From Deltaproteobacteria bacterium RIFCSPHIGHO2_02_FULL_43_33 (GTDB taxonomy: Bacteria; Desulfobacterota; GWC2-55-46; UBA9637): a stretch of 55,658 nt of DNA. The position numbers and the translations under genes are program-made. The stretch is from NCBI GenBank assembly GCA_001798165.1, contig MGRL01000069.1, positions 1-55,658 on the forward strand, read 5' to 3'. Positions 12,953 to 37,700 of this stretch are shown piece after piece (position 1 is the stretch's first letter; each line of letters opens with the position of its first letter). The notes under the pieces are model-generated. The model was not told where the DNA came from and ran no database searches. It saw only the letters and a program-made list of their open reading frames with translations.

Positions 12953-12956
<4 letters not shown>

Positions 12957-15267: not shown

Positions 15268-15294
15268 CAAGATAATCTAATGGGGGAGATTTAA

Positions 15295-15996: not shown

Positions 15997-15998
15997 CC

Positions 15999-17258: not shown

Positions 17259-17261
17259 AAA

Positions 17262-18176: not shown

Positions 18177-18247
18177 GGTTATGTTTTTTGGTATACTAAA
18201 AAAGTTGTTTTCCACAGAAATTTTTATGGGAGAGGAAAGGCATTATC

Positions 18248-20875: not shown

Positions 20876-22306
20876 ATGCAACCCTTAAATAAAAATATTC
20901 ATGCAGTGATTCTGGCAGGAGGCACAGGCACACGATTCTGGCCATTGAGCAGAGAGAGGTCTCCAAAGCAGATGCTTAAGATTTTTGGCGAAGACACAAT
21001 GATAAGGCAGACCATAAAAAGGATTTGTGGTCTTGTGTCTGAGCAAAATATCTCTATTGTCACAAATGAAAGATTGGCATTTGATTTAAATCTTCATCTT
21101 GAGGGGATCAAAAGAAGAAAAGACGATTTTAAGATAATCGCTGAGTCAATTGGCAGAAACACGGCGCCGGCTATAGGCCTCGCAGCGGTTTATCTTAAGA
21201 AGAATAATCCTGATTCAATAATGGTTGTATTGTCTTCGGACCACAGCATCGGTAACGAAAAAGCATTTATTGATGTGCTGAAAAAAGCAATAAAGAGCGC
21301 TGAAAAGGGGAACCTTGTTACTCTTGGCGTAAAGCCAGTTCGACCGGAAACAGGATATGGGTATATAAAAGCAGGAGTCAGGAATCAGAAGTCAGGAATC
21401 AGGAAGGTTGAAAAGTTTACAGAAAAACCTGATATTAAAACTGCGCAGCGCTATTTAGAAAGCGGTAATTACTTCTGGAACAGCGGAATATTTGTATGGA
21501 AGGTCTCCGCAATCCTCGGAGAGATAAAAAAATATATGCCGCTGCTGTACAGCGGACTTTTAAAAATAGAAAAGGCGCTGGCCACAAAAAATGAAAGAAA
21601 GATTATAGAAGAAGTGTATTCGGAACTTGAAAGCCAATCCATTGACTACGGCGTCCTTGAAAAGAGCAACAAGGTAATGGTTGCGCCCGCTGACATCGGG
21701 TGGTGTGATGTAGGCAGTTGGACAGCCCTTGATGATGTGCTTCCGCATGATGATAACGGCAATATAATCAAGGGAAATGTTGTAGATATAGCAAGCAAAG
21801 ATTCTATAATATTTTCCAGTGATAGGCTTGTTGCGACTATAGGTTTGAAAAATATGGTCATAGTCGATACCCCGGACGCCACGCTTGTGTGTGAAAAGCA
21901 TAGGGCGCAGGATGTTAAAAAAATTGTCGACGAGTTGAAAAGACGCGGCAAGGAAGAACATCTTATCCACAAGACGGTGGAAAGGCCGTGGGGGGCATAT
22001 ACGGTGCTTGAATGCGGTGACCGATATAAAATAAAAAGACTGGCTATAAAACCGGGCGGAAGGCTGAGTATGCAACTGCATCGCCACAGGAGCGAACACT
22101 GGGTTGTTGTCTCAGGCACAGCCCGCGTTACAAAAGACACAGAGGTTTATGATGTGCATCCGAATGAGAGCACCTATATTCCCATGTCGACAAAACACAG
22201 GCTTGAGAATATCGGCAAAGTCCTTCTGCAGATTATAGAGGTTCAGAATGGCGAATATCTCGGCGAGGATGATATAGAGAGGATAGACGATGATTACAAC
22301 CGTTAA
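20876..22306 (+). CDS. manC: Mannose-1-phosphate guanylyltransferase / mannose-6-phosphate isomerase
   Basis: ILAGGTGTRFWPLSR, FTEKP, WNSGIF, SIDYGVLEK; cupin tail RPWG...HRHRSEHW. Confidence 0.95.
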   Translation: MQPLNKNIHAVILAGGTGTRFWPLSRERSPKQMLKIFGEDTMIRQTIKRICGLVSEQNISIVTNERLAFDLNLHLEGIKRRKDDFKIIAESIGRNTAPAIGLAAVYLKKNNPDSIMVVLSSDHSIGNEKAFIDVLKKAIKSAEKGNLVTLGVKPVRPETGYGYIKAGVRNQKSGIRKVEKFTEKPDIKTAQRYLESGNYFWNSGIFVWKVSAILGEIKKYMPLLYSGLLKIEKALATKNERKIIEEVYSELESQSIDYGVLEKSNKVMVAPADIGWCDVGSWTALDDVLPHDDNGNIIKGNVVDIASKDSIIFSSDRLVATIGLKNMVIVDTPDATLVCEKHRAQDVKKIVDELKRRGKEEHLIHKTVERPWGAYTVLECGDRYKIKRLAIKPGGRLSMQLHRHRSEHWVVVSGTARVTKDTEVYDVHPNESTYIPMSTKHRLENIGKVLLQIIEVQNGEYLGEDDIERIDDDYNR

Positions 22307-23759
22307 TCCAGGGATATTTCGCCAATACGACATCCGTGGCATTTTTAATAAAGACTTAACACCGCAAGCGGCTTATGCAATTGGCGCAGCATATGGAGCA
22401 TACCTTTTACGACTCAAAGGGTCAAAAGGGTTGAGGGTTAGTGTCGGCAGAGATGTAAGATTAAGCTCCCCTATCTTAAGAGATGCTTTAATAGAAGGAA
22501 TACTTTCAACAGGTATTGATGTTATAGATATTGGCGAATGTCCAACGCCCCTTCAGTATTTCTCTTTATTTCACTTGAATCTTGACGGTGGCATCATGAT
22601 AACCGGCAGCCATAATCCGCCGGAATTTAATGGATTTAAAATCAGCATCGGCCAGGAAACCATATACGGGCAGGCAATTCAGGAGTTGAGAAGGATAGTG
22701 GAAAGCAAGGGTCAGGAGTCAGGAGCCATAAGTCAGGAAAAAAAGGGGAAAATAGAATATTATAATATTGTTCCGGTGTATATTGATTACCTTAAGAAGC
22801 AGTTTTCAAAATACCCGCCGTCAAATAAACCTGCCGTTAAAGTTGTTGTTGATGCAGGAAACGGAACGGCAGGCCGTATGGCGCCGAAACTTTTGAGGGA
22901 GTTAGGTTGTGAAGTTGTTGAGCTTTTTTGCGACCCCAACGGCAACTTCCCCAATCATCACCCTGACCCCACTATCCCTGAAAATTTAAATGATTTAATA
23001 GCGGCAGTAAAAATACACAAAGCGGATTTCGGTATTGCTTATGACGGCGATGCAGACAGGATAGGTATTGTTGACGAAAAGGGGAAGATTGCCTGGGGAG
23101 ATCAGCTCCTGATAATATTTGCAAGAGATATACTTAAAAACTCAAAGCTCATCCCCTATAGCTTCAATCGGGGACAAAACTCAAAACCGACCTTTATCGG
23201 TGAGGTAAAATGCTCACAGGTTATGTATGATGAAATCAATAGGCTCGGCGGTAATGCCATTATGTGGAAAACAGGGCATTCTCTTATAAAATCAAAGATG
23301 AAAGAAACAGGCTCCGTCCTGGCGGGAGAGATGAGCGGACATATATTTTTTGCAGACAGATATTTCGGCTATGACGACGCAATTTACGCATCATGCCGAT
23401 TGGTGGAGATCCTTTCCGCGGAGCGGTTGCGCATTCCAAATGCCCCATTTTCCAGCCTCCTTTCCGGTTTGCCGGAAACCTATACAACTCCCGAAATAAG
23501 GGTTGATTGTCCTGATGAAGAGAAGTTTAAAGTGATTGACAGGCTATCTGAGGTTGTCAGTCAGGAAGATATGGGGATCAGGGGCATAATCAGGATTGAC
23601 GGCCTTAGATTAGTATTTGATAATGGGTGGGCGCTCATTCGGGCCAGCAACACACAACCTATTCTTGTTCTCAGGTTTGAAGCGACAACTGAAGAGGGGC
23701 TTGGGCAGATAAAAGAATCTGTGGAGAAAAAATTAAAGCAAGCGCTTTATCAAAAATAG
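22290..23759 (+). CDS. algC: Phosphomannomutase/phosphoglucomutase (AlgC/ManB type)
   Basis: FRQYDIRG, TGSHNP, DGDADR, GEMSGH, RASNTQP. Confidence 0.92.
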   Translation: MITTVNPGIFRQYDIRGIFNKDLTPQAAYAIGAAYGAYLLRLKGSKGLRVSVGRDVRLSSPILRDALIEGILSTGIDVIDIGECPTPLQYFSLFHLNLDGGIMITGSHNPPEFNGFKISIGQETIYGQAIQELRRIVESKGQESGAISQEKKGKIEYYNIVPVYIDYLKKQFSKYPPSNKPAVKVVVDAGNGTAGRMAPKLLRELGCEVVELFCDPNGNFPNHHPDPTIPENLNDLIAAVKIHKADFGIAYDGDADRIGIVDEKGKIAWGDQLLIIFARDILKNSKLIPYSFNRGQNSKPTFIGEVKCSQVMYDEINRLGGNAIMWKTGHSLIKSKMKETGSVLAGEMSGHIFFADRYFGYDDAIYASCRLVEILSAERLRIPNAPFSSLLSGLPETYTTPEIRVDCPDEEKFKVIDRLSEVVSQEDMGIRGIIRIDGLRLVFDNGWALIRASNTQPILVLRFEATTEEGLGQIKESVEKKLKQALYQK

Positions 23760-23802
23760 CGATTGATTTTTGGGGAAATAAATTAAATCGGAGGCTGATA
23801 GA

Positions 23803-24834
23803 ATGACTAAAAAAGCATTTATTACCGGCATAACCGGGCAGGATGGGGCGTATCTCACTAAACTATTGATAGAAAAAGACTACGAGGTTTATGGTGCCTT
23901 CAGAAGAACATCGGATTTGCATCTGAGCAGGCTAAAATTTTTAGGAGTGGATGACAAGATAAAGTTTATTCCTCTGGAGCTGCTGGAGTTTACCAATATT
24001 TACAGGGCAATGGAGAAGATACAGCCGGATGAAATATATAATCTTGGAGCGCAGAGTTTTGTTGCGCTGTCATTTGAGGAGCCGATATTTACTGCTGATG
24101 TGACGGGTGTAGGCCCTTTGAGAATTCTCGAGGCCATACGGGCGCTCAATCCAAAGATTAAGTTCTATCAGGCCTCTTCGAGTGAGATGTTCGGAAAGGT
24201 TCAGGCAATACCACAGAATGAAAAGACCCCGTTTTATCCAAGAAGCCCTTATGCAATAGCAAAACTTTTTGCCCATTGGACTACGGTAAATTATAGAGAG
24301 TCTTATAACCTTTTTGCATGTTCTGGCATTCTCTTTAATCACGAATCGCCGTTGAGAGGTTTAGAATTTGTTACAAGGAAGATAACAACCGGCGCGGCGC
24401 GTATCAAGTATGGGCTTCAGGATAAGATAGTCTTGGGAAATTTAGATACAAAAAGGGATTGGGGTTATGCCCCTGAATATGTAGAGGCTATGTGGCGTCT
24501 GCTCCAGCAACCTGAACCAGATGATTATGTCATAGCAACCGGAGAAACCCATTCTGTAAGAGAGTTTGTGGAGTTGGCCTTTGAGAAGACCGGTGTTAGG
24601 ATAGGATGGGAGGGTAAAGGTGTCGATGAAAAAGGAATAGATAAAAAAACAGGCAAAGTTGTTGTGGAAGTTTCTCCTGAATTTTTTAGGCCGGCTGAAG
24701 TGGATATTCTTATAGGAGATTATTCTAAGGCCAAAGAGAAATTGAAATGGCAGCCTAAAACCACATTTGAGGATTTGGTGAGTATAATGGTTGAGGCGGA
24801 TATCAAAATGGTTGAGAGAGATTTGAGAAAATGA
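23803..24834 (+). CDS. gmd: GDP-mannose 4,6-dehydratase
   Basis: ITGITGQDG, QASSSEMFG, YPRSPY, NHESPLRG, RDWG. Confidence 0.96.
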   Translation: MTKKAFITGITGQDGAYLTKLLIEKDYEVYGAFRRTSDLHLSRLKFLGVDDKIKFIPLELLEFTNIYRAMEKIQPDEIYNLGAQSFVALSFEEPIFTADVTGVGPLRILEAIRALNPKIKFYQASSSEMFGKVQAIPQNEKTPFYPRSPYAIAKLFAHWTTVNYRESYNLFACSGILFNHESPLRGLEFVTRKITTGAARIKYGLQDKIVLGNLDTKRDWGYAPEYVEAMWRLLQQPEPDDYVIATGETHSVREFVELAFEKTGVRIGWEGKGVDEKGIDKKTGKVVVEVSPEFFRPAEVDILIGDYSKAKEKLKWQPKTTFEDLVSIMVEADIKMVERDLRK

Positions 24835-24845
24835 GCCTTATCTAA

Positions 24846-24986
24846 CAGATTGTTGAAAAACTCAACAATCTCTGATTACACAGAGAAAAGATTAGATTAC
24901 ACAGATTGAAACTCCTTGAAATATCCGTGTAATCATCTTTTATAATCTGTGTAATCAAGGCTGTTGATGACTTTTTCAACAGCCTG
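24846..24986. mobile_element. MITE family B, copy 2 (diverged, CTAA target duplication)
   Basis: 141 bp with the same ends; CTAA at 24842-24845 and 24987-24990. Confidence 0.88.
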
Positions 24987-25009
24987 CTAAACTTGGTTGG
25001 GGGAAAATT

Positions 25010-26158
25010 TTGAGGATTGGCATAAATTCGCTTTTTCTCGTATCGGGTAAAGGCGGGGGCATAGAGAGGTATTTAAGAGGGCTCGTTGGCGGCCTGAAAA
25101 AGATTGATAAAAAAAATGAATATTTTATCTTTACCAATAGAAATTGCAGGGGTGCATTTGGATTTGGCGAAAACTTTCATGAGATATATTGCGATGTCTC
25201 TGCGGTTTTCAGGCCGGCCAAGATACTCTGGGAGCAGTTTGTCCTTCCATGGCAGCTGAAGAGGCATAAGATCGACATCCTTCTTTCTGCCGGCAACACC
25301 GCTCCTGTTGCGCATCGGTGTCCATCGGTGGCGATAATTTACGATATGATTCCGTTTATAAGGCCGGAGGGATTCAACACCATAGAGTTACTTGCATTAA
25401 AAACCTTGTTTTCGCTGACAGCAAAAACAAGTTCAAAGATTATAACGATTTCAAAATCCTCACAGGAGGAAATAGTCAAGAGATTGAAGGTGTCTCCTGA
25501 TAAGGTAGAAATTGTTTATGGGTCTTGCGATGAATATTTCAAGCCGGTTGGAGATAAAGGAAGGAGTGAACTCCAGAAGTACGGAATAAGCGGCGAATAT
25601 ATTCTTTATGTGGCTTCAAGCAGACCGTATAAAAATATAGATGGTTTGATTAAGGCATATAGAATTATGAAAGAAAGGCATCACATGGGGCACAAGCTGG
25701 TAGTCGTTGGCCTTGCAGGCAGGGCATATCCTGAACTTATGAAACTGGTGAAGGAATCGAAATTGGAGGGCGATGTCATATTCTGCGGCTTTGTCAATGA
25801 CGAAGACCTTCCCCTGTTGTATTCTCTATCATATGTCTTTGTGTACCCCTCCTTCTATGAAGGGTTCGGATTGCCGATACTGGAGGCAATGTCATGTGGG
25901 GTCCCGGTAGCGGCATCTCATGTTACCTCTATCCCAGAGGCTGTCGGTAACGCCGGTCTTCTCTTTGACCCGTATAATGTCGAAGAAATGGCAGAGGTTA
26001 TCTACCGTCTGATGATTGACAGTGGCCTGAGGGAATCATTGATACAGAAAGGGTATGAGTGGGTCAAAGAATTTTCATGGGAAAAAAGCGCAATGCGGGT
26101 TCTTGCAGTATTATCTGATACCTATACGGAAAATAGAATGTTTGGCAGGGGAATATAA
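25010..26158 (+). CDS. GT4 family glycosyltransferase
   Basis: RPYKN; YPSFYEGFGLPILEAM. Confidence 0.9.
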   Translation: MRIGINSLFLVSGKGGGIERYLRGLVGGLKKIDKKNEYFIFTNRNCRGAFGFGENFHEIYCDVSAVFRPAKILWEQFVLPWQLKRHKIDILLSAGNTAPVAHRCPSVAIIYDMIPFIRPEGFNTIELLALKTLFSLTAKTSSKIITISKSSQEEIVKRLKVSPDKVEIVYGSCDEYFKPVGDKGRSELQKYGISGEYILYVASSRPYKNIDGLIKAYRIMKERHHMGHKLVVVGLAGRAYPELMKLVKESKLEGDVIFCGFVNDEDLPLLYSLSYVFVYPSFYEGFGLPILEAMSCGVPVAASHVTSIPEAVGNAGLLFDPYNVEEMAEVIYRLMIDSGLRESLIQKGYEWVKEFSWEKSAMRVLAVLSDTYTENRMFGRGI

Positions 26159-26164
26159 AAGATT

Positions 26165-27292
26165 GTGAAGATCTGTTTTATTCTCGAATATTACCACCCC
26201 CATATCGGAGGAGTAGAATATCTCTTTAAAACGCTTACCGAAGGGTTAAGGAAAAGGGGATATGAAGTAACAGTCCTTACCAGAAGACTCAAAGGGACCA
26301 AGGGGCGAGAGTTTGTAGATGGGGTCAGGGTAATAAGGATTAGAACATTGAACAGGTATGTCTTTACTTTTTTTTCAATACCGTGGGCCATTTTTCTGGC
26401 AAGGGGTTGTGATATAATTCATACAACAACATTTAACGGCGCCTTTCCTGCGTGGGTTGCATCAAAGGTCTGGGGGATTCCGGCGGTAATCACCATCCTT
26501 GAGGTATGGCTCAAGAAATGGAGAATGCTTACGGATATGAACTGGCTTTCAGCCTTGGTGCATAATCTCCTTGAAAGGATGATATATTTGTTGAGTTTTG
26601 ATTTTTATGTAGCCATATCGCACTCCACAGAAAGGCAGCTCTCGAAAGTCGGCGTTCAGAAAGAACGAATGAAGGTGATTTACAATGGATTTGAGCATGA
26701 TTTTTTCAACCCTGAAAGGTACGATGGGGATATTGTAAGAGAACGATATGGCCTTAAGGATGCATTTATCTGTTTTTCCTGGGGAAGACCAGGGGTTTCA
26801 AAGGGCCATGAATATCTCATAATGGCTGTTCCTCGCATTGTTGAGAAAATCCCTCACGCCGTGCTTTTATTAATGCTCAGCGACAAAGAGACCTATCGGA
26901 GGAGATACCGGTACCTTATAGACCTTATTCGGAAACTTGAGGTCAGTAGCAAGGTGATACTGGTAGAACCGGTTCCCCGAGGGGAGCTTGGTTTTTATCT
27001 CAAGGCAGCTGATTGTATCGTTATACCATCTATTGCCGAAGGGTTTGGCTACGCAGCGCTTGAGGCATGTAGTATTGGGACGCCGGTTGTAGCATCGGAT
27101 ACCACATCTATTCCAGAGGTTATAGGTGGCAGATACGTCCTCGTTGAGCCGAAAAACCCTGAGGCTATTGCTAAAGGAGTTGAGAGTGTATATAAAGGCG
27201 AATACAGGACATCTGAATTAAAGGTTTTTCCCTGGGACAGAGCTGTAGCTGAATATATGGGTGTATATGATGCACTATCATCACAGGCTTGA
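26165..27292 (+). CDS. GT4 family glycosyltransferase
   Basis: PHIGGVE; GRPGVSKG; PSIAEGFGYAALEA. Confidence 0.9.
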   Translation: MKICFILEYYHPHIGGVEYLFKTLTEGLRKRGYEVTVLTRRLKGTKGREFVDGVRVIRIRTLNRYVFTFFSIPWAIFLARGCDIIHTTTFNGAFPAWVASKVWGIPAVITILEVWLKKWRMLTDMNWLSALVHNLLERMIYLLSFDFYVAISHSTERQLSKVGVQKERMKVIYNGFEHDFFNPERYDGDIVRERYGLKDAFICFSWGRPGVSKGHEYLIMAVPRIVEKIPHAVLLLMLSDKETYRRRYRYLIDLIRKLEVSSKVILVEPVPRGELGFYLKAADCIVIPSIAEGFGYAALEACSIGTPVVASDTTSIPEVIGGRYVLVEPKNPEAIAKGVESVYKGEYRTSELKVFPWDRAVAEYMGVYDALSSQA

Positions 27293-27294
27293 AG

Positions 27295-27996
27295 ATGCAT
27301 AAACTACTCGTCATAATGCCGGCCTATAATGAGGCTGAGAGCATTGGAAATATTATTCCAGCGGTCAAAAAAAACTTACCGTCTGCCGATATCCTTGTTG
27401 TCAACGACGGCTCGAAAGATGCTACGGCTGCTATTGCCAGAAGACTCGGAGCGCTGGTTACCGACCTTCCTTACAATATGGGCATAGGCGCTGCTATGCA
27501 GACAGGTTACAGCTATGCTGCATTAAATAACTATGATATAGCAGTACAGGTGGACGCAGACGGCCAGCATCCTCCTGACCAGATACCTTTCCTGATACAA
27601 CCGATTATGGAACAAAAGGCAGATATGGCTATTGGTTCAAGATTCCTTGGAAATGGCAATTATCGTCCTTCTTTGGCAAGAAATATCGGTATAAGGATTT
27701 TTTCCATGTTGTTATCTGCAATAACGAGTCAGAGGCTGACTGACACTACCTCTGGCTTCAGGGCTGTTAATAAAGGAGTAATAAAATTCTTTGCCAAAAA
27801 TTATCCTGAAGATTACCCGGAGGTAGAAGCTATTGTATTGCTTCGCAAGGCAAGGTTCAATATAATAGAAGTTTCTGTAAAGATGGAGGCAAGAATCGGT
27901 GGAAAGTCTTCCATTACACCTTTACATGCGGTTTATTATATGATAAAGGTGTTGCTGGCTGTATTGATAGATATTTTGAAAAAGGTGGAAAGGTAA
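27295..27996 (+). CDS. GT2 glycosyltransferase, DPM1-like (polyprenol-phosphate glycosyltransferase)
   Basis: MPAYNE, VNDGSKD, VDADGQH, GSRF, DTTSGFRA; paired with DUF2304. Confidence 0.85.
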   Translation: MHKLLVIMPAYNEAESIGNIIPAVKKNLPSADILVVNDGSKDATAAIARRLGALVTDLPYNMGIGAAMQTGYSYAALNNYDIAVQVDADGQHPPDQIPFLIQPIMEQKADMAIGSRFLGNGNYRPSLARNIGIRIFSMLLSAITSQRLTDTTSGFRAVNKGVIKFFAKNYPEDYPEVEAIVLLRKARFNIIEVSVKMEARIGGKSSITPLHAVYYMIKVLLAVLIDILKKVER

Positions 27997-28007
27997 AGGA
28001 AGGAAGG

Positions 28008-28070
28008 AAACAGGTTAAGGTCAAGATTGAGGCTGAGGATTTCTAAACCTTAACCTTAGCCTCAACCTTA
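28008..28070. repeat. Head-to-head hexamer array (GGTTRA / TYAACC type)
   Basis: ACAGGTTAA GGTCAA GATTGA GGCTGA GG...AACCTT AACCTT AGCCTC AACCTT. Confidence 0.75.
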
Positions 28071-28079
28071 TAAAGCGCT

Positions 28080-29673: not shown

Positions 29674-29711
29674 GCTGAAAATTTCTTTACGCTTAACCTT
29701 ATAACCTTATT

Positions 29712-30353: not shown

Positions 30354-30366
30354 ATTCCGGCGGGTT

Positions 30367-30615
30367 TAATACAAACGCAATAATTAACAGTTTGTTGAAA
30401 AACTCAACAAACTCCGATTACACGGATAAAAGATTAGATTTCACAGATTAAAACCCATTGAAATATCTGTGTAATCGTTTTTCCTAATCTGTGTAATCAA
30501 GGCTGTTGATGCCTTTTTCAACAGCCTGTTAATTTGTAGGGCAAGCCTTCATGCTTGCTTATTTTGCAGGGCTAAAGCCCTGCCCTACGTCAATTTATTT
30601 AATTCGTCTGTATTA
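30367..30615. repeat. REPIN-like family C copy interrupted by MITE B
   Basis: Outer IR TAATACAAACG...CGTCTGTATTA; GTAGGGCAAGCC...GCCCTGCCCTAC core. Confidence 0.75.
30388..30528. mobile_element. MITE family B, copy 3 (TTAA target duplication)
   Basis: Appears identical to 6935-7075 by eye. Confidence 0.9.
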
Positions 30616-30738
30616 GTAACCGGCAGACGGCAGACAAGAAAAGATTCAAATGCAGCAGCATTGGTGTTTCGATATATTTTTATTGCATATTCCCGATTTT
30701 TTATGATAGGATAAGCAACGAATTAAATAATGTTACAT

Positions 30739-30788
30739 GTAGGGCGAGGCTTTAGCCTTGCTTAAGCAACCCTAAAGGGTTGCCCTAC
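30739..30788. repeat. GTAG-family REP doublet (core only)
   Basis: GTAGGGCGAGGCTTTAGCCTTGC-TTAA-GCAACCCTAAAGGGTTGCCCTAC. Confidence 0.8.
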
Positions 30789-30797
30789 TTGATTTTT

Positions 30798-31418
30798 ATG
30801 ACATCAAAAACAACAAAAAAAAAGCCAATCTCTGAAGATGCTATAAAGGTCCTTATTGCAGAGGATAATGCTGTTTCCAGAAAGTCTCTCTCCTCTCAGC
30901 TTGAATCACTCGGTTTTAATGTGGTTGCTGCGGCAGCCACAGGCGAAGAGGTATGCAGCCTCTTTCCTGAGCTTAAGCCAGACCTCATCATAATGGACAT
31001 TAAAATGCCGAAGATGGACGGCATAGAGGCTGCAAAGGTTATCACCAAACATGCCTCTATCCCCATAATCCTTGTAACAGGCCATTCCTCTGAGACTGTG
31101 ATTAGCAGGGCAATGGAGAGCGGCGTCGGCGTATTTGCCTATCTTTTAAAACCGATAACCAAAAAAGACCTGCTTCCTGCCATAAAGGTCGCCTTTGCCA
31201 GGCATAATGAATTTCAGACCCTAAAAAGCGAGTTCAGCGATTTAAAGGATGCCCTTGAGACAAGAAAGCTGGTTGAACGGGCAAAGGGCATTCTCATGAA
31301 ACGTCTGACCATCCCTGAGGATGAGGCATTTAAACTCCTCCAGACCCAGTCCCAAAAAGAAAACAAAAAACTTAAAGAAATAGCAGAGACCGTAATAACC
31401 GCAAGCAGGATGCTATAA
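30798..31418 (+). CDS. ANTAR-domain response regulator (REC-ANTAR; NasT/EutV/PdtaR type)
   Basis: IAED, IIMDIKMPKMDG, LLKP receiver motifs; LETRKLVERAKGILM...EDEAFKLLQTQSQ ANTAR domain. Confidence 0.93.
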   Translation: MTSKTTKKKPISEDAIKVLIAEDNAVSRKSLSSQLESLGFNVVAAAATGEEVCSLFPELKPDLIIMDIKMPKMDGIEAAKVITKHASIPIILVTGHSSETVISRAMESGVGVFAYLLKPITKKDLLPAIKVAFARHNEFQTLKSEFSDLKDALETRKLVERAKGILMKRLTIPEDEAFKLLQTQSQKENKKLKEIAETVITASRML

Positions 31419-31499
31419 ATAAATACAGACTATGGGCGATAGGCAATAGGCTATGGGTAAAGAGGACGATATATAAATACAGGCAATGGGCTATGGGCA

Positions 31500-31898
31500 A
31501 TGGGTAGAAAAGGCTTTAAAGATTTGATTGTCTGGCAAAAGGCTAAAGACCTCGCAGTTGCTATTTATAAACTGAGTGGAGGAGGAGATTTGGGGCGTGA
31601 TTTTGGCTTACGAGATCAAATTAGACGCAGCGCTGTAAGCATTGCCGGTAATCTGGCTGAAGGAGATGAACGAGATACCGACAAAGAGGCAGTTCATTCT
31701 TTCTATATTGCGAAAGGTTCCCTTGCTGAATTACAGAGCCAGATTCTAATTGCTTATGAGATTGGATATCTTAAAAAAGAGGTTTATGAGAATATTAGCG
31801 CAGATTACAGTGAATTGGGCAAAGTGATTGGTAAACTCATAAAATACAGGCGAGGGGCTATGAAGGCAGGCAATAGGCAAGAGGCGATAGGGCTATGA
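31500..31898 (+). CDS. Four helix bundle protein (23S rRNA IVP / bAvd-like family)
   Basis: FKDLIVWQKA, FGLRDQIRRSAVSIAGNLAEG, IAKGSLAEL; flanked by GGCWATR heptamer arrays. Confidence 0.9.
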   Translation: MGRKGFKDLIVWQKAKDLAVAIYKLSGGGDLGRDFGLRDQIRRSAVSIAGNLAEGDERDTDKEAVHSFYIAKGSLAELQSQILIAYEIGYLKKEVYENISADYSELGKVIGKLIKYRRGAMKAGNRQEAIGL

Positions 31899-31956
31899 GT
31901 TTTCCTATCGCCTATCGCCTGTATTTTTATATTCTTAATCTTTTTTAATTTTTTTC

Positions 31957-31984
31957 TTGACATATTTTAATTTTTAGGTAGAAT
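31957..31984 (+). promoter_or_regulatory. Sigma70 promoter of the cytochrome gene
   Basis: TTGACA (31957-31962), 16 bp spacer, TAGAAT (31979-31984); AT-rich upstream tract. Confidence 0.72.
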
Positions 31985-31994
31985 AGACCTTAAG

Positions 31995-32074
31995 TAAGCG
32001 CTGATGGCGGTGCTTATATTTAAAGTGCAGAGGTGATGGCGCCTCAGTGGCCGTAAGGCTTTTTGAGGTTTTTT
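31995..32074 (+). promoter_or_regulatory. ANTAR target RNA: twin hexaloop hairpins overlapping an intrinsic terminator
   Basis: TAAGCGCT-GATGGC-GGTGCTTA and GAGGT-GATGGC-GCCTC; terminator CCTCA...GGCC-GTAA-GGCT...TGAGG-TTTTTT shares the 3' arm of hairpin 2. Confidence 0.85.
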
Positions 32075-32121
32075 ATCTTTTAACCCAAGGCTTCGGTCTA
32101 AAAAATAAAAAGGAGGAAGGT

Positions 32122-33411
32122 ATGAAAAGACTTATTTTAATAGCCTTATTAGCACTTGGCTTAGGGTTTGGATTGACCCTGATGGCATCAACACCATCAA
32201 TGGCAGTTCACAAAGGTTCAGGCGATTTGACTTGCGGCAGCTGCCATACAATGCACAGCAGCCAGGGCGGCACATCTAGTCCTTCAATGGGCGGCGCAAC
32301 CGGCGCCCTCATCCTGCTGAGAAACTCGCTGGTCACAGGCAGAGAAACCATCCATCAGCTTTGCCTTCAGTGCCATGCAGCAGCTGGAACGCAGGGTGGT
32401 GTTCAGTTTAACGCCTGTCCCGGGACAGCTTGCACAACCCCGCCAAAGGTGTTGCTTACCTCAACCGATGCGTGGAATACGACTAAGGACTTTTCTACAA
32501 TCGGAGCAGGCGGCGACTTCCAATTTGTTGGAAGTTATGTTTCCGGTAGCTATAATAGCACTCAGGATGGCGGAACCGCACTCGGAAGAGGCCACAGCAT
32601 AGGAGGGACAGTCATCGCACCTCCAGGCAACGGTTCTACAGTGGGTACGATTGCAACGTTTAGCTGCACAACCTGCCATGACCCGCATGGAACATCAGCT
32701 ACGACCTCAACTATTAACATATACAGAAACCTTAAGGGAGGTATAGTGGCAGGGGCAACTGATAAAAATTGGTCAAATATGCTGACTAACGGTAATATAG
32801 GCACTTCTTATGTAGGCGGTCCAACTGGCGCTTCAGATGATAACAGCCTGGGAACAACCCCTACAGGTGGTTCTGGTATTGCCGCTTCAAACAATATTTG
32901 GCCGACGTATAGGTCATCTGGCACCCAGAATTCATATAGCACCAGTACTACTCCGCCAACCCTTGGTGGAACTGCTTTAACTGGTCTAGACGGCACCGGC
33001 TATACCCTTATGTCTGCATTCTGCGCCCAGTGCCATAGCTTATGGCATGAAAATGTAACAACAGGAAACAAGACCGGCTCTGATTGGAATAGGCACCCTG
33101 TGGACAACAGGATTTCAGATACCTCTTCTGCTTCAGGCGCTGGCGTAACCATTACAGACTTTACCCACTACAATACCAATATCGCAGCAGGTTTTAAACT
33201 CCCAGCTGCTAATGATGCTGGTAGTGCATTCTACTACGCAGATAACTCAGGCGACAAGGTTTTCTGTCTGTCTTGTCACTTTGCGCATGGCAGCCCATAC
33301 TATGACATCCTGAGATGGGATTACATAGCTCAGATAGATGCTGCTGGTGGCAGCCAGACCGGCAACGGCGTGGCATCAGTCAAAGGTTGTCAGCAGTGCC
33401 ATAACAGGTAA
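32122..33411 (+). CDS. Secreted hexaheme c-type cytochrome, OmcS-like
   Basis: Signal peptide; six CxxCH (CGSCH, CLQCH, CTTCH, CAQCH, CLSCH, CQQCH); OmcS-like motifs CxxCHTMH, GGDF, CxxCHDPHG, RHP, CLSCHxAH; AGGAGG RBS. Confidence 0.87.
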   Translation: MKRLILIALLALGLGFGLTLMASTPSMAVHKGSGDLTCGSCHTMHSSQGGTSSPSMGGATGALILLRNSLVTGRETIHQLCLQCHAAAGTQGGVQFNACPGTACTTPPKVLLTSTDAWNTTKDFSTIGAGGDFQFVGSYVSGSYNSTQDGGTALGRGHSIGGTVIAPPGNGSTVGTIATFSCTTCHDPHGTSATTSTINIYRNLKGGIVAGATDKNWSNMLTNGNIGTSYVGGPTGASDDNSLGTTPTGGSGIAASNNIWPTYRSSGTQNSYSTSTTPPTLGGTALTGLDGTGYTLMSAFCAQCHSLWHENVTTGNKTGSDWNRHPVDNRISDTSSASGAGVTITDFTHYNTNIAAGFKLPAANDAGSAFYYADNSGDKVFCLSCHFAHGSPYYDILRWDYIAQIDAAGGSQTGNGVASVKGCQQCHNR

Positions 33412-33420
33412 TACGCTGTA

Positions 33421-34182
33421 ATGTCATTGCAAGGAACTTTAGTTCCGAAGCAATCTGAAAAAGGGGGAAGGGAAACCTTCCCCCTTTTTTTCTTTATAGC
33501 CATCCTCGTTTCCTTTGTTTCCTTTCAAAGAAATATCGCATGGGATGAGGAATTGAGCATATGGCAGGATGCGGTTCGTAAGTCCTCTCATAAGGCAAGA
33601 CCACATAGCAACCTTGGCGCGGCCTTTGGAGGTAAAAGGCTTTTTCATGAGGGGGCAAGAGAATCCCGCATCGCCATATACCTGAACCCGTATCTTGCAG
33701 AGGCGCATAACAATCTTGGGAATATATATCTGGAGATGGGGTTGGCGCAGGATGCCTTGAAGGAGTTTCAAGATGCCGTTGAATTAGAGCCGTCGTTTGC
33801 AGTTGCCCATTACAATGCAGGGCTTGCATATAAGGCCATTGGCCTCATGGAAGAGGCTCAAAAGGAGTTTAAGAAGGCAGTTGAAATAAGGCCGTTCTAT
33901 GCAAAGGCCCATAATGAACTTGGCATGCAATATATGACAAATGGCATGTATGAGGCTGCTGTAACGGAATATAACAAGGCGCTGGAAGGCGATAATAGGT
34001 TTGCCCCAACGTATAATAACCGCGGGGTAGTTTATGCGCGGTTAGGCATGTGGGACAATGCCATCAAAGAGTTTCAAAAGGCCATGAGCATAGACCCTGC
34101 ATTAACCGAAGTAGAGAAAAACCTGAAAAAGGCGTATGCCAATAGAGAGGCGGCTGTCAGGAAGGCCGTAAAAAACCCTTGA
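33421..34182 (+). CDS. TM + TPR protein (TMTC C-terminal-half type) 2; start uncertain
   Basis: RNIAWDEELSIWQDAVRKSSHKARPHSNLG followed by TPRs. Confidence 0.78.
   Translation: MSLQGTLVPKQSEKGGRETFPLFFFIAILVSFVSFQRNIAWDEELSIWQDAVRKSSHKARPHSNLGAAFGGKRLFHEGARESRIAIYLNPYLAEAHNNLGNIYLEMGLAQDALKEFQDAVELEPSFAVAHYNAGLAYKAIGLMEEAQKEFKKAVEIRPFYAKAHNELGMQYMTNGMYEAAVTEYNKALEGDNRFAPTYNNRGVVYARLGMWDNAIKEFQKAMSIDPALTEVEKNLKKAYANREAAVRKAVKNP
33458..33491 (+). terminator. Intrinsic terminator after the cytochrome gene
   Basis: AAAAAGGGGGAAGG-GAAA-CCTTCCCCCTTTTTTT. Confidence 0.8.
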
Positions 34183-34203
34183 ACATATAAAGATTCTGCT
34201 GTA

Positions 34204-34308
34204 TATACTGAAAGCAATAAATAACTTGTAGGGCAACCCTTTAGGGTTGCTTATTTATGCAGGGCTAAAGCCCTGCCCTACGGCAAGTTATTTATTGCCG
34301 TTACTATA
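34204..34308. repeat. REPIN-like family C copy
   Basis: Near-identical to 2997-3099. Confidence 0.85.
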
Positions 34309-34367
34309 AAAAGAAATTTCACCCCTACCATCTCCTTTTACCAGAAAATGCTTCATATTCACATTAC

Positions 34368-34425
34368 CGTAACGTTGCCCTTTATAGGCAACGGTTTTTC
34401 GTTGGGGATAAACCCCAACACTACG
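34368..34425. repeat. REP doublet family D
   Basis: CGTAACGTTGCCCTTTATAGGCAACG...CGTTGGGGATAAACCCCAACACTACG; related copy in the opposite orientation at 49673-49727. Confidence 0.7.
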
Positions 34426-34494
34426 AAAATCCAATTTTCATGCCCTCCGCCAAAGGCGGATGAGCTACCAACTCATGTGGGTTTAGCGGCAAAT

Positions 34495-34524
34495 TTGACA
34501 TTGCGCACGTCTTTAATATATAAT
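34495..34524 (+). promoter_or_regulatory. Sigma70 promoter, probably giving a leaderless transcript
   Basis: TTGACA at 34495-34500, 18 bp spacer, TATAAT at 34519-34524; ATG 6 nt later with no SD. Confidence 0.7.
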
Positions 34525-34530
34525 TAAAAA

Positions 34531-35862
34531 ATGAAGCAAATCTATATAAGGTATATCGGCATTTTTTTGCCTTTCCTGTGCATCCTGCTTTGGTCTCCTC
34601 TTCCTGCTATGGGGGCCACCATACAATATCTTTTCAGTATAGACGTTATGGCAAGCGGACAGCCCTTTGTCGGCGTAAGCGCCCTCCTTATAGATAATAA
34701 AAACAGTGAATTGTATGCCCTGGATGATGGGAACAGGCGGCTGGTTATAATGAATCTGGAGGGGGTATTCTTGTATCAATTCACCTATACGGATGCGGGA
34801 ATTAAGAATATGCCTATAGGTATAGCAGTGGCTGATGACGGGAAGATATATATTGCTGAAGGAAAGAGGGTGGTAGTTGTCGATTACAGGGGTATGTATG
34901 ACCACGATATGTCCCTCTCTACTATTCCGGATGCAAATGAGATAAACATACAGTCCGTAGCCATAGATGGCAATACCGTCTACCTCGGCACTGTTGGCAG
35001 GGTAGTGATGATGGATAAAAAAGAAGAGAAATTTATTGCTGAATTTAAAGAGGGTCTGGGACAAAACAACTATATTGCCATGGATTACAACGGGATGTAT
35101 ATAAGAGATCCGGGCGCCCTTATTATCTTTCACCTGGCTAAGGACGGCAAAGTCCTTGGCCACTTTGGCAAGATATCAGGCCTTGCAGGTGGTTTTAGCA
35201 TGACCGTGGATATGGCAGTGGAAAGGAAGAAGGGGTGGGTTATTGTATTAGATATTAACAGGGCTGCAACTATATTTTTTGATAGAGAAGGCAATTTCCT
35301 CTTTGAGTTTGGCGGCCCCGAGCTCTTTAAATGGCCGAGGGCTGTTGCAGCAGACGATGAAGGCAGGATATATGTTACGGATGGAACAGGCAAGATAAGG
35401 GTTTTTCAGATAATAGAAGACGCCCCTGTAATTAAAGAAGCCAAACCCGAGTCAAAACCGGAAATACCATCTGCTGCCCCTCCTCCTGTATCTGAACCCA
35501 AAAAGGATGAGGTGCAGAAGATAGTTGAAGAAGAGGGAAGGCTGCTGCCTCTATTTTTTGCCATAGACAGCGCAAAACTTAAAAAGGCCGACCTTTTAAT
35601 CCTTGATAAAAATGCGGTATGGCTTAAGAAAAACCCTGACGCAAAGATAAATGTGAGAGGTTATGCAGACGAACGCGGCACAGATGAATACAATCTTACA
35701 CTCTCTAAAAAAAGGGCAAAGGCAGTAATGGACTACTTTGTAAAACAAGGCATAGACTCAAAGAGGCAGAAATTTATAGGCTATGGCAAGGAGCTTACAA
35801 CAGACAAGAGTGAAACGGGATTTGCAAGGTCAAGAAGGGTAGATTTTCTTGTAGTAAAGTGA
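34531..35862 (+). CDS. Exported NHL-repeat beta-propeller fused to an OmpA/Pal-like peptidoglycan-binding domain
   Basis: Signal peptide; PIGIAVADDGKIYI, WPRAVAADDEGRIYVTD; Pro-rich linker; GYADERGTDEYNLTLSKKRAKAV...SRRVDF. Confidence 0.85.
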   Translation: MKQIYIRYIGIFLPFLCILLWSPLPAMGATIQYLFSIDVMASGQPFVGVSALLIDNKNSELYALDDGNRRLVIMNLEGVFLYQFTYTDAGIKNMPIGIAVADDGKIYIAEGKRVVVVDYRGMYDHDMSLSTIPDANEINIQSVAIDGNTVYLGTVGRVVMMDKKEEKFIAEFKEGLGQNNYIAMDYNGMYIRDPGALIIFHLAKDGKVLGHFGKISGLAGGFSMTVDMAVERKKGWVIVLDINRAATIFFDREGNFLFEFGGPELFKWPRAVAADDEGRIYVTDGTGKIRVFQIIEDAPVIKEAKPESKPEIPSAAPPPVSEPKKDEVQKIVEEEGRLLPLFFAIDSAKLKKADLLILDKNAVWLKKNPDAKINVRGYADERGTDEYNLTLSKKRAKAVMDYFVKQGIDSKRQKFIGYGKELTTDKSETGFARSRRVDFLVVK

Positions 35863-35880
35863 TAACCGCATGGACAGGGT

Positions 35881-36357
35881 ATGAAGATTTTACAGTTGTT
35901 TGGCAATATTGCAATGATTGTATTGATAGGATGTTACTCCATGGCAGCTGTAAAAAGAAACGTCGCATGGGGAAACGAGCATATCCTGACTACCGATAAT
36001 ATTTATAAGTCTCCCGGCAAGGCCAGACCCTATCTCAATCGCGGACTCTTCTACTTTAACAAAAACAGGATAGACGATGCCATCAGGGAATACCTGATAG
36101 CGCTTCAGCTTGACCCTGATTATGCCTATGCGCGCAACAATATCGGGGTTGCCTACTACAACAAAGGGTATCTGGATGCCGCAATAAAAGAGCTTACAGA
36201 GGCCATACGGCTGTCCCCTGGTTATGCCGAAGCGCATTATAACCTTGGGATAGCATATGGAGAAAAGGGTCTTGCCCAAGAGGCGTATATAGAGATAAAA
36301 AAGGCCATGGAACTTAATAAGAATCTTGCCGAAGAATTAAAATATTCAAAACCATAG
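35881..36357 (+). CDS. TM + TPR protein (TMTC C-terminal-half type) 3
   Basis: RNVAWGNEHILTTDNIYKSPGKARPYLNRG followed by TPRs. Confidence 0.82.
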   Translation: MKILQLFGNIAMIVLIGCYSMAAVKRNVAWGNEHILTTDNIYKSPGKARPYLNRGLFYFNKNRIDDAIREYLIALQLDPDYAYARNNIGVAYYNKGYLDAAIKELTEAIRLSPGYAEAHYNLGIAYGEKGLAQEAYIEIKKAMELNKNLAEELKYSKP

Positions 36358-36375
36358 GCATATCAGGATAATTAC

Positions 36376-37104
36376 ATGGAAGGCTCTGTGACAATAAAAA
36401 CACTATTTGCGTTTACCTGCATAATCCCCTTCCTTGCCTTTGTATCTTTCCAGAGAATAGCCGTTTATAAAAATGAGTTCACCCTCTGGGCAGATGTAGT
36501 CAAAAAATCATCTTTAAAGGCCAGGCCGCATAATAATCTTGCAGCCGTATATAAAGACAAAAAGATGTTTAATCTTGCGCTCAACGAATACATGGAAGCA
36601 ATAAGAGTTAACCCCGGGTATGCAGCCGGCCATGGTAATCTTGGAAGTATGTATTATGAACTGGGTAGACTTGATGAGGCTGAGACGGAAGTTAAATTAG
36701 CCCTGACTGCTAATACCCACTTTAAGGATCTGCTCCATAGACTACTGGGTCTTATATATATAAAAAAAGGGGCGCTTGATGAGGCGGCGAAGGAATTTAA
36801 AGAGGCTATAGCCATGATACCAAATTATCCAGATGCCAAGCGAAATATTGCAGTAATTTTCACTAACGAAGGATTTTTATACGCTGATAAGGGAGATTTT
36901 GAACGCGCCCTCGTGCTCCATAGAATGGCAGTTTTTGCAGATTCAGGATATCCTGATGCCCGCTATGGGCTTGCCCAGGCATACGAAGCTTTTGGCCAAA
37001 GGGAAGAAGCGATAAAACAGTGGCAGGAATACCTCAGATTAGCGCCATCAGATGAGCCGTTTAGGAAGGATGCAATGAAACATCTGGAGAGGTTGTGGGA
37101 ATAA
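36376..37104 (+). CDS. TM + TPR protein (TMTC C-terminal-half type) 4
   Basis: RIAVYKNEFTLWADVVKKSSLKARPHNNLA followed by TPRs. Confidence 0.82.
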   Translation: MEGSVTIKTLFAFTCIIPFLAFVSFQRIAVYKNEFTLWADVVKKSSLKARPHNNLAAVYKDKKMFNLALNEYMEAIRVNPGYAAGHGNLGSMYYELGRLDEAETEVKLALTANTHFKDLLHRLLGLIYIKKGALDEAAKEFKEAIAMIPNYPDAKRNIAVIFTNEGFLYADKGDFERALVLHRMAVFADSGYPDARYGLAQAYEAFGQREEAIKQWQEYLRLAPSDEPFRKDAMKHLERLWE

Positions 37105-37109
37105 TAGCG

Positions 37110-37700
37110 ATGCCTTTAAAATCCGAGCTGTTCTTTTTTGCCGCAGTAGGTATTATTTTTTCTATTGTCACATTTCAGAAAAATGTTTTATGGGGAAGCG
37201 AAAAAGGCCTATGGCTGGATATTCTGCAAAAATCACCATCCAAGGCGCGGCCGCACACTAATCTTGGCATGGCCTATGACCTTGATGGCAATATAGCCAA
37301 GGCAGAAGATGAGTATAACAAGGCTATACAATTAGAGCCTGATTATCTTGCCGCATATGCTCCTTTGGCAGTTATGTATGGAAAAAGAGGAGATGTGGAT
37401 AGAGCTATTGAGATGTTTTTGTGGCTTATACCAAGATTGCCTAATCGGGACCCCAAGGCACATACAGGTTTGGGGGTTGCTTACATGATAAAGGGGCTTT
37501 TGAAAGATGCAGAAAGGGAATTTCAGGAGGCATTAAAGATAGATCCAAATTATGAGATAGCACACTACAATCTCGCTGAGATTTATGGGCAGATGGGTTT
37601 AAAGGATGAGGCATTAAAGCATTATAAAATATTTATTGAAAATGCGCCGCCTGCGCAAAAGGAACTGGTTATAAAAATAAAAACAAACTATGGGTTATAG
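37110..37700 (+). CDS. TM + TPR protein (TMTC C-terminal-half type) 5
   Basis: KNVLWGSEKGLWLDILQKSPSKARPHTNLG followed by TPRs. Confidence 0.82.
   Translation: MPLKSELFFFAAVGIIFSIVTFQKNVLWGSEKGLWLDILQKSPSKARPHTNLGMAYDLDGNIAKAEDEYNKAIQLEPDYLAAYAPLAVMYGKRGDVDRAIEMFLWLIPRLPNRDPKAHTGLGVAYMIKGLLKDAEREFQEALKIDPNYEIAHYNLAEIYGQMGLKDEALKHYKIFIENAPPAQKELVIKIKTNYGL

Follow-up and report, generated by a model that had tools for sequence, protein, structure and literature searches.

Does the stretch from 20876 to 37700 of contig MGRL01000069.1 encode one complete pathway devoted to glycosylating an OmcS-like cytochrome nanowire, as an earlier note on this DNA had proposed, or does it bring together genes that serve different ends? 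The window, by which we mean the whole 55,658-nucleotide contig (assembly GCA_001798165.1), comes from Deltaproteobacteria bacterium RIFCSPHIGHO2_02_FULL_43_33, the genome of which comprises about 2.19 Mb and is rated 94% complete; gene identities were assigned by Pfam and NCBIfam scans, with Pfam run on 51 open reading frames (ORFs) of the window. The + strand carries every sizeable gene between 9259 and 37700, including all of those named in the note. The proposal that the 17 kb constitutes a single dedicated pathway was not borne out, however, as its glycosyltransferase (GT) cassette is class-wide, the linkage of the cassette to the cytochrome is not conserved and a WaaL-type ligase is encoded elsewhere in the genome. 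The locus is best explained as three separate units placed side by side, namely a glycan cluster (unit A, 9259-27292), the glycosyltransferase cassette (unit B, 27289-31418) and the cytochrome cluster (unit C, 31957-37721). Our reading, to which we assign a probability of roughly 45%, is that a general GT-C O-glycosylation system, encoded in unit B, is recruited to the cytochrome cluster by TPR adaptors that the cluster itself encodes.

The enzyme of the proposed system is encoded in unit B, which is composed of the following features.

27289-27996, + strand: GT2 of the DPM1/PpgS/GtrB type, first gene of the cassette (Pfam Glycos_transf_2, 80.1 bits)
28080-28457, + strand: DUF2304 small membrane protein, GacJ/Rv3632 family (PF10066, 90.3 bits; cut-off 25.5)
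28435-29673 (alternative start 28384), + strand: predicted GT-C-fold catalytic core (structure model, alignment)
29712-30353, + strand: transmembrane (TM)-anchored TPR module (collinear with the TPR part of fused relatives)
30500-30527, + strand: terminator-like hairpin after the 29712 TPR module (consensus scan)
30780-31418, + strand: ANTAR response regulator (Pfam)

From 28384/28435 to 31898, the order is a 429-aa polytopic protein, a TPR protein, the ANTAR response regulator and a small protein termed IVP. The 429-aa protein matched no Pfam family even at an E value of 10, DUF1736 (PF08409) included, and a single-sequence phmmer search of the PDB gave no match. The predicted structure of the 412-residue form starting at ATG 28435 had a pLDDT of 89.5 and a pTM of 0.91, and its comparison with 48,161 chains by VIA-align indicated that ranks 1-20 were all GT-C-fold proteins (Z 15.6-8.7, 273-325 residues aligned, root-mean-square deviation 4.5-6.1), including AglB (Z 15.6), ArnT (15.1), Pmt1/2 (14.8), STT3, Pmt4, ALG12 and PglB, with short helical matches at Z ≤8.1 from rank 21 down. 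Foldseek also placed GT-C enzymes in its best rows, none of them at E ≤1e-3. A search of the PDB with the profile of alignment A2 was uninformative on the GT-C part, TPR matches dominating it. The residues D39 and D40 of the FHFDD motif in the first extracytoplasmic loop (numbered from ATG 28435) were invariant in 38 sequences.

The GT-C family proved to be large, with 55,063 representatives at E ≤1e-3. Among its 150 best relatives, 131 were at least 500 aa long, and C-terminal TPRs were present in all eight of the long relatives scanned. In the window, the core ends at 429 aa and the TPR array is not fused to it, being carried by a separate gene 39 bases downstream. The segment ALLFAVHPIQT of the window protein resembles LLFAVHPIHT, printed for human TMTC3, and an Atlas feature neighbour was a TMTC_DUF1736 cluster (score 0.96). 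Filing the protein as a TMTC proper was rejected for want of a DUF1736 match. Taken together, these results support the 429-aa protein as a GT-C-fold enzyme and a split form of the TMTC-like GT-C-TPR architecture. For the GT2 that opens the cassette, the best NCBIfam models were PpgS, AglJ and dolichyl-phosphate hexose transferase (E 7e-29 to 1.5e-21, all well under the cut-offs), and it is presumed to be a polyprenyl-phosphate-sugar synthase. Just one copy of DUF2304 was found in the genome.

The putative adaptors reside mainly in unit C, whose features, together with those of the element separating it from unit B, are given below; transcription signals were located by consensus scans only.

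31415-31932, + strand: small four-helix IVP gene (31500-31898) with flanking 32-nt inverted repeats (Pfam, repeat scan)
31957-31984, + strand: sigma-70-type promoter-like site 5' of the cytochrome gene, near-consensus, 11/12 (consensus scan)
32122-33411, + strand: OmcS-family hexahaem cytochrome with signal peptide (motifs, profile)
33421-34182, + strand: TM-anchored TPR module with junction motif (Pfam, junction HMM)
33457-33490, + strand: hairpin with a 15-bp stem and a T run, within the 5' end of the 33421 ORF (consensus scan)
34495-34524, + strand: promoter-like site before the NHL-OmpA gene, perfect consensus, 12/12 (consensus scan)
34531-35862, + strand: NHL beta-propeller fused to an OmpA/Pal-type peptidoglycan-binding domain (Pfam, NCBIfam)
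35881-36357, 36376-37104 and 37095-37700, + strand: three TM-anchored TPR modules with junction motif (Pfam, junction HMM)
37697-37721, + strand: terminator-like hairpin closing the cluster (consensus scan)

The order from 32047/32122 to 37700 is therefore cytochrome, TPR protein, NHL-OmpA protein and three TPR proteins. In each of the five small TPR proteins of units B and C, a single initial membrane helix precedes the motif RN..W......W.D...KS..K.R...N, which also forms the junction in fused GT-C-TPR enzymes. The 29712 module was furthermore collinear with residues 431-607 of the fused relative P0126, with 39% identity over 179 residues. Outside this genome, a regular expression proved too strict to recognise the junction motif (4/76 loci), and a hidden Markov model (HMM) built from 16 instances in the window's own genome was used in its place. 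With this HMM, towards which counts in the own genome lean owing to its origin, 23 unfused junction-type TPR modules were found there, and 5 of the 23 lie within 8 kb in the window (Poisson P ~4e-8 for the clustering, computed with 24 copies in a 2.19-Mb genome).

To the GT-C core we docked, in a complex model, the 36376 module, which belongs to the cytochrome cluster and is not the natural split partner of the core. The ipSAE was 0.88 in 3/3 runs, the best of three controls being 0.00; the mark applied was reached by 116 of 157 solved complexes and by 2 of 215 mismatched pairs. The partner pLDDT was at least 87, and at least 81% of the contacts agreed between runs. At the modelled interface, the helix of the module and its junction residues R27, N28, W31, D40, K44, S45 and R50 face segments 26-38, 131-145 and 284-292 of the core, which contain conserved motifs and lie beside the Asp-Asp loop. 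The model supports docking of a TPR module of the cytochrome cluster on the GT-C core.

A recurrent association of such modules with OmcS-like genes emerged from a survey of 76 loci around OmcS-like genes of public genomes (907 kb). In eight other loci (L002, L004, L008, L010, L011, L025, L026 and L033), OmcS-like genes have junction-type TPR modules no more than 6 kb away, and the arrangement usual in relatives starts with the cytochrome and continues with an NHL-OmpA or NHL protein, one to three TPR modules, an NHL protein and a distant second cytochrome; the NHL-OmpA protein is a conserved partner directly 3' of the OmcS-like genes. In a quick tree of 53 modules with SH-aLRT support, from which L139 was dropped because its DNA duplicates that of L008, the 29712 module fell into a clade (SH-aLRT 99) of three members adjoining a GT-C core and seven inside cytochrome clusters, and one of these seven, that of L008, adjoins a GT-C core too. 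At L008, the row is cytochrome, NHL-OmpA, TPR and GT-C core, with the DUF2304 gene of that genome on another contig, and a rearrangement has placed the only detected GT-C copy of the genome in the cytochrome cluster. The partner of the 36376 module in the tree is a module from the cytochrome cluster of L011 (SH-aLRT 98). The recurrent link to OmcS-like clusters is accordingly formed by the TPR modules, not by the enzyme. A separate clade (SH-aLRT 97) holds 15 of 18 unfused modules from elsewhere in the own genome; these 15 modules, on 15 contigs, form an own-genome-only clade that is placed next to the clade of three fused GT-C-TPR genes. They may represent a lineage-specific expansion, the coverage of other genomes being confined to the fetched loci.

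The cytochrome, the putative client, probably starts at ATG 32122 behind AGGAGG (alternative start 32047). It (P0001) has six CXXCH motifs, and the Cys pairs and His of all six were invariant in 40 homologues; the search for homologues yielded 338 relatives at E ≤1e-3 among 8,000 candidates scored, annotated, where named, as 'hypothetical' or 'cytochrome c553'. A single-sequence phmmer search of the PDB matched nothing, OmcS included, whereas the profile of the 40 homologues (A1) matched OmcS (6ef8_A) with an E value of 1.3e-22 over chain residues 8-362 of 407. Seven His outside the motifs were invariant in the family, including H70 (in CHTMH), which aligns with the second His of the CEGCHTMH segment of OmcS. 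This position corresponds to His16 of OmcS, reported in the 2019 structure papers as a ligand of a haem in the next subunit; that the residue is there does not demonstrate polymerisation. A haem-free model of the cytochrome reached a pLDDT of 65.3, and its single Foldseek match was 6ef8_A (E 0.49, TM 0.13). The profile also touched 7tfs_A, a 232-aa chain named 'Cytochrome c', at an E value of 0.037 through the CH..H motif region. By sequence, the protein is a member of the OmcS family. Ser and Thr make up 23.9% of the mature cytochrome against a family mean of 18.5%. Among the 1,169 stop-to-stop frames of its own genome that reach 250 aa, this value ranks at the 98.8th percentile.

Two further OmcS-like paralogues were observed in this genome. 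The second, on C59 (398-4218, L090), has as its neighbour a GT-C gene in the same orientation that an insertion sequence has cut; a DUF772/DDE transposase insertion separates the paralogue from the remaining 5' fragment of 147 aa. The third, on C65 (430-9364, L091), is followed by an NHL propeller and by multihaem cytochromes of 490 and 1448 aa. Some 5.6 kb downstream of the last of these comes a junction-type TPR module, which is thus 13 kb away from the OmcS-like gene.

Because of its promoter-like sites and terminator-like hairpins, the cytochrome cluster looks like two transcription units of its own. The hairpin at 33457-33490 starts 46 bases past the cytochrome stop, in the first 25 codons of the next ORF, and could, by analogy, allow high expression of the cytochrome and lower expression downstream, as is usual for major filament subunits. 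Folding of the 5' leader of the cytochrome was only slightly better than that of shuffles (z -2.12). The IVP gene looks like an inserted cassette between units B and C; its flanking 32-nt inverted repeats are 81% complementary, and tblastn found eight copies of the gene in the genome, another one in the window lying at 38200-38568 on the - strand.

The mechanism that we propose would proceed as follows. The GT2 and its DUF2304 partner would make a polyprenyl-phosphate monosaccharide, and the GT-C core would transfer that sugar on the periplasmic side. The five TPR modules are homologous to the stretch of fused TMTC-like GT-C-TPR enzymes that comprises the last membrane helix, the junction motif and the TPR array. 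Helix and junction motif would serve to plug each module into the core, close to the catalytic Asp-Asp loop. The TPR array would then present a client for Ser/Thr O-glycosylation before export, the client being the Ser/Thr-rich cytochrome and perhaps its partners too. Unit C holds four of these TPR homologues, as periplasmic proteins anchored in the inner membrane, and the cytochrome cluster would therefore supply an enzyme of shared use with adaptors of its own rather than encode an entire pathway for itself. That the cytochrome, or its cluster partners, is a client of the neighbouring GT-C enzyme is a possibility that we rate at slightly less than even. Several individual identifications of the earlier note find support here. 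The DPM1-type GT2 with DUF2304 is, by family matches, the kind of pair that makes polyprenyl-phosphate sugar donors for GT-C enzymes; what had been called a GT-C core and its adaptors is, by the model fold and the junction motif, a split TMTC-like enzyme with detachable TPR modules; and the description of a Ser/Thr-rich, exported, OmcS-like cytochrome agrees with the profile match, the signal peptide and the composition.

A number of observations weigh against recruitment of the enzyme to the cytochrome, beginning with the distribution of the cassette. In a phyletic survey of 41 genomes of the class, in which OmcS-like genes were called at E ≤1e-40, such a gene was present in 16/41 genomes, a GT-C in 39/41 and DUF2304 in 33/41, the last in 12/16 genomes with the cytochrome and 21/25 without it. 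The cassette is present with or without the cytochrome; in G001, a genome of the same genus (90% complete), neither the cytochrome nor DUF2304 was found. Among 12 cassette loci taken from other genomes (L127-L138), GT2, DUF2304 and GT-C were contiguous in 10 and the ANTAR gene was directly downstream in 9, five of these nine genomes having no cytochrome, and an OmcS-like gene occurred in none of the 12. The linkage of cassette to cytochrome asserted in the earlier note is hence not conserved across genomes. Because cassette loci recur in other genomes with the cytochrome present or absent, GT2-DUF2304-GT-C-(TPR)-ANTAR is a class-wide housekeeping cassette that is independent of the cytochrome. 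At one of these loci, L129 (contig C58 of G012), the family makes up a local array, the cassette being succeeded by two further genes for fused GT-C-TPR enzymes and by two for free TPR modules. As a regulator of the cytochrome, ANTAR was dropped from consideration, since it accompanies the GT-C cassette in cytochrome-free genomes; an Rfam scan of the whole window yielded no RNA target for it, tRNA being the only match, and no histidine kinase was identified. The 427-base gap 5' of the ANTAR gene contains, at 30536-30791, several imperfect palindromes of the form GTAGGGC...GCCCTAC, with arms of 23-31 nt that are 81-87% complementary.

For the enzyme gene, the locus survey points the same way. 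A GT-C gene was present in 4 of the 76 OmcS-like loci (L002, L008, L016 and L064) against 2.1-2.3 expected (P 0.15-0.20), which is not significant. In favour of a link, on the other hand, DUF2304 was present in three (L002, L064 and L071) against 0.3-0.45 expected (P 0.004-0.011), the P value rising to 0.04-0.08 if the Nitrospirota loci L064 and L071 count as one event; in these two, GT2-DUF2304 lies near distant OmcS-like genes, L064 having a fused GT-C-TPR gene as well. The whole cassette adjoins a cytochrome cluster only here and in L002, which is of the same family, and partially in one other genome. On the opposing side, G035, a genome rated 100% complete (L009, L011 and L029), has three junction-type TPR modules in its OmcS-like cluster and no GT-C at E 1e-3 with the query used; this lack may be an assembly gap, because the DUF2304 gene of G035 sits at the first bases of a contig. 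Within the window itself, units B and C are split by terminator-like hairpins, the inserted IVP cassette and a separate promoter-like site.

Other counterpoints concern the modules and the client. The complex model was computed from alignments of our own making and may only echo the intramolecular packing of fused homologues. TPR arrays also occur in scaffolds for polysaccharide export and assembly (BcsC, PgaA and AlgK), so that TPRs do not imply a protein acceptor. The Ser and Thr content of the cytochromes has no link to TPR neighbours, the mean being 0.181 with them (n=9) and 0.170 without (n=16; one-sided P 0.17), and one of the lowest values, 12.4%, belongs to the cytochrome of L008, although a GT-C gene is present in that cluster. 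That the window cytochrome forms a wire, or is glycosylated, is something that we infer only. A preprint on Geobacter cytochromes cautions that wire formation is known for OmcS itself alone and that HMMs do not suffice to recognise nanowires in other genera (10.1101/2025.11.06.686851).

The alternative that survives best, which we nevertheless regard as unlikely, is that the neighbourhood has no functional meaning. The cassette would then be a general three-component system decorating a glycan, either LPS/O-antigen from the adjacent Wzx cluster or some other envelope polymer, or many unrelated proteins. The TM-TPR proteins of the cluster would be GT-C-independent periplasmic chaperones or scaffolds that help to fold, secrete or anchor the cytochrome, descended from GT-C-TPR enzymes minus the enzyme part. 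The presence of the cassette regardless of the cytochrome, a GT-C density near OmcS-like genes that is not above chance and the missing Ser/Thr correlation all suit this explanation, as does the position of the cassette, whose GT2 start is overlapped by 4 bases by the second GT4 gene of the glycan cluster (ending at 27292), and likewise the setting of the GT2-DUF2304 pair of L064 in a run with GT2, GT4 and heptosyltransferase genes. Glycan-modifying systems composed of a GT2, a small membrane protein and a GT-C are documented, as in GacI-GacJ-GacL (10.1101/180810; see also PMC11127046), and the osc cluster of Geobacter is reported to serve the folding, secretion and morphology of OmcS (as cited in PMC13194489). 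On the other hand, the free TPR modules show hardly any variation in the junction motif, through which they touch the core in the model, and this would be unexpected if they no longer met a GT-C; orthologues of the core-adjacent TPR module lie inside cytochrome clusters in seven loci; and the rearrangement at L008 set the only detected GT-C of its genome in the cytochrome cluster.

The earlier proposal itself, that 20876-37700 with the upstream flippase and fcl forms one dedicated pathway placing a mannose/fucose-type glycan on a nanowire cytochrome, is improbable, and its assessment involves the genes of unit A.

9259..20811, + strand: upstream half of the Wzx-type glycan cluster (Pfam, NCBIfam)
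10576-11511, + strand: fcl-like gene (GDP-L-fucose synthase model, 297 bits, under the cut-off of 500)
12953-14434, + strand: Wzx-type flippase (Pfam Polysacc_synt)
20876..24834, + strand: GDP-mannose and GDP-6-deoxyhexose precursor genes (Pfam, NCBIfam)
20876-22306, + strand: manC (TIGR01479, 558.8 bits; cut-off 373)
22290-23759, + strand: phosphomannomutase/phosphoglucomutase (best model PgmG, 501 bits, under the cut-off of 600)
23803-24834, + strand: gmd (TIGR01472, 486.8 bits; cut-off 415)
25010-26158 and 26165-27292, + strand: two GT4 glycosyltransferases (Pfam, NCBIfam)

The flippase and fcl of the earlier note are present on the + strand, and both lie upstream of 20876-37700. The upstream half runs as NDP-sugar dehydrogenase, fcl-like epimerase/reductase, B12-radical-SAM enzyme, Wzx flippase, two methyltransferases, GT4, GT2, radical-SAM/SPASM enzyme and B12-radical-SAM enzyme, and from 20876 to 28457 there follow manC, phosphomannomutase, gmd, two GT4, the DPM1/PpgS-like GT2 and DUF2304. 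The manC and Wzx genes were each found in a single copy in the genome with the queries used, and the further genome matches of gmd were only distant members of the epimerase family (23-25%). The cluster contains two B12-binding radical-SAM enzymes and one radical-SAM/SPASM enzyme (11490-12956, 18248-19396 and 19306-20811) in addition to two SAM methyltransferases, a set that hints at unusual C-methylated or otherwise modified sugars; the ORFs 18248-19396 and 19306-20811 share 91 bases, and the true start of one of them is probably further downstream.

With its genes on one strand, separated by short gaps, and a window free of Wzy, Wzz and WaaL, the stretch has the look of a single pathway; the absence of these last three, noted earlier, was upheld in that 0/51 Pfam-scanned ORFs of the window matched Wzy_C or Wzz. 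In addition, genes for an epimerase and a GT4 have stayed with the cassette and the cytochrome in L002, the closest relative, L071 has GT4, GT2, GT2, GT2-DUF2304 and cytochromes in one run, and omcE clusters with 15-70 accompanying genes, glycosylation genes among them, have been described (PMC13712944). The genome as a whole speaks otherwise. Its one Wzy_C match, on C118, is embedded in a group that comprises four genes for GT9 heptosyltransferases, several for GT4 enzymes and one for a PfkB kinase, and because this surrounding is a lipopolysaccharide (LPS)-core cluster, the gene is most likely a WaaL-type ligase. It can account for the Wzx-dependent glycan; with this and the unconserved linkage of cassette to cytochrome, two of the outcomes that the earlier note had named as refuting its proposal have largely come about. 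No Wzz was found in the genome (at its 94% completeness), and Wzy polymerases are too diverse to be excluded by one Pfam model. The window contains no initiating phosphoglycosyl transferase, the sole Bac_transf match of the genome being on C116 (with one Glycos_transf_4 match on C71). GT-C enzymes of this kind, as in the PMT, ArnT and Gtr systems, use as donor a single sugar on polyprenyl phosphate made by a GT2, not a Wzx-flipped oligosaccharide. Moreover, the cassettes of other genomes have no manC-gmd-GT4 genes upstream, and terminator-like and promoter-like sites divide the stretch. Unit A would, instead, be a Wzx-dependent cluster making GDP-mannose and GDP-6-deoxyhexose, with a short O-unit or similar envelope glycan as its product, which, on the simplest reading, the C118 protein, as the one WaaL-type ligase of the genome, would attach to lipid A-core.

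En-bloc O-glycosylation, in which the C118 Wzy_C protein would act as a PglL-type oligosaccharyltransferase and move a Wzx-flipped oligosaccharide to the cytochrome, is very improbable: the Wzy_C domain is common to PglL/PilO-type enzymes and the genome has one Wzy_C match and no Wzz, but the gene stands between heptosyltransferase and GT4 genes of the LPS-core cluster, the usual place of WaaL, and has no tie to any cytochrome cluster.

If TM-TPR modules do recruit a GT-C core, the present locus would name candidate enzymes, donors and specificity factors for filament glycosylation. Sugar-like cryo-EM densities are reported on OmcS, OmcE and archaeal cytochrome filaments, the available texts naming no enzyme that adds them. 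It would also follow that TMTC-like enzymes can act as a core with exchangeable substrate adaptors. Extending this beyond the locus, we tentatively suggest, while considering it rather doubtful, that the class runs a modular protein O-glycosylation in which one TMTC-like GT-C core is shared by many interchangeable single-pass TM-TPR adaptors encoded beside their clients, OmcS-type clusters having two to four such adaptors. If so, glycosylation of filament subunits would be programmed by the cytochrome cluster, a trans-acting targeting that has not been described for any GT-C enzyme; our literature search by title or abstract found no description of a split GT-C core with free trans-acting TPR subunits, which is not proof that none exists. 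At the same time, an over-reading is corrected, in that the sugar-nucleotide genes and the GT2-DUF2304-GT-C cassette represent general envelope functions, not a private nanowire pathway.

Comparison with known systems places these proposals in context. The window cytochrome resembles OmcS of Geobacter sulfurreducens (6ef8) in being a hexahaem protein of about 400 residues, in the profile match over nearly the whole chain with the His16-aligned His invariant, in having several paralogues per genome and in having a beta-propeller (NHL) partner directly downstream; it differs in that its cluster holds NHL-OmpA and four TM-TPR modules and in that a single-sequence search misses OmcS. The filament surfaces of both OmcS and OmcE are described as glycosylated (PMC9473688). 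In freshwater Geobacter, the omcE clusters are reported to be followed by 15-70 genes including GT2, GT4, GT39, TPR and regulator genes, which were linked to the densities on OmcE (PMC13712944). The likeness to our locus is that a filament-cytochrome cluster adjoins genes for GT2, GT4, a GT-C (GT39), methyltransferase, sugar exporter, TPR proteins and regulators, the link to surface glycosylation having been drawn there from the cryo-EM densities. The differences are that OmcE is a tetrahaem protein of another family and that, in the window, the GT-C is split, TPR modules are inside the cytochrome cluster and the cassette is class-wide.

Among enzymes, the human and other eukaryotic O-mannosyltransferases TMTC1-4 (PMC7801869) likewise have a GT-C membrane part followed by a TPR array on the non-cytoplasmic side; DUF1736 (PF08409) is reported there for all TMTCs, whereas the window system has no DUF1736 match and its TPR part is on separate polypeptides. 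TfpW of Pseudomonas aeruginosa (10.1101/2020.04.19.049825) is, by description, a GT-C of bacterial origin that has a DDX motif and ends in a TPR domain on the periplasmic side; it is encoded beside pilA, the gene of the filament subunit that it glycosylates, and it uses a polyprenyl-phosphate-linked sugar; it differs in being a single fused chain and in acting on a type IV pilin. The three-component systems (GtrB/GacI, GacJ/Rv3632 and a GT-C) share with unit B a GT2 synthase, a DUF2304 partner and a GT-C transferase, but their GT-C enzymes have no TPR part; a dedicated flippase for the lipid-linked monosaccharide was not identified here, where no search aimed at GtrA-like or ArnE/F-like genes was made. 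In these systems, GacJ/Rv3632 is reported to bind and stimulate the GT2 synthase (10.1101/180810), and streptococcal GtrB with the GT-C PgtC2 is reported to O-glycosylate, by adding glucose, Ser/Thr-rich regions of extracytoplasmic proteins (PMC12041528). A cytochrome cluster tied to glycosylation genes is therefore already in print for OmcE (PMC13712944), and what seems new here is a case from the OmcS family in an uncultured class, a split core with free TPR modules, and these modules, rather than the enzyme, as the conserved link.

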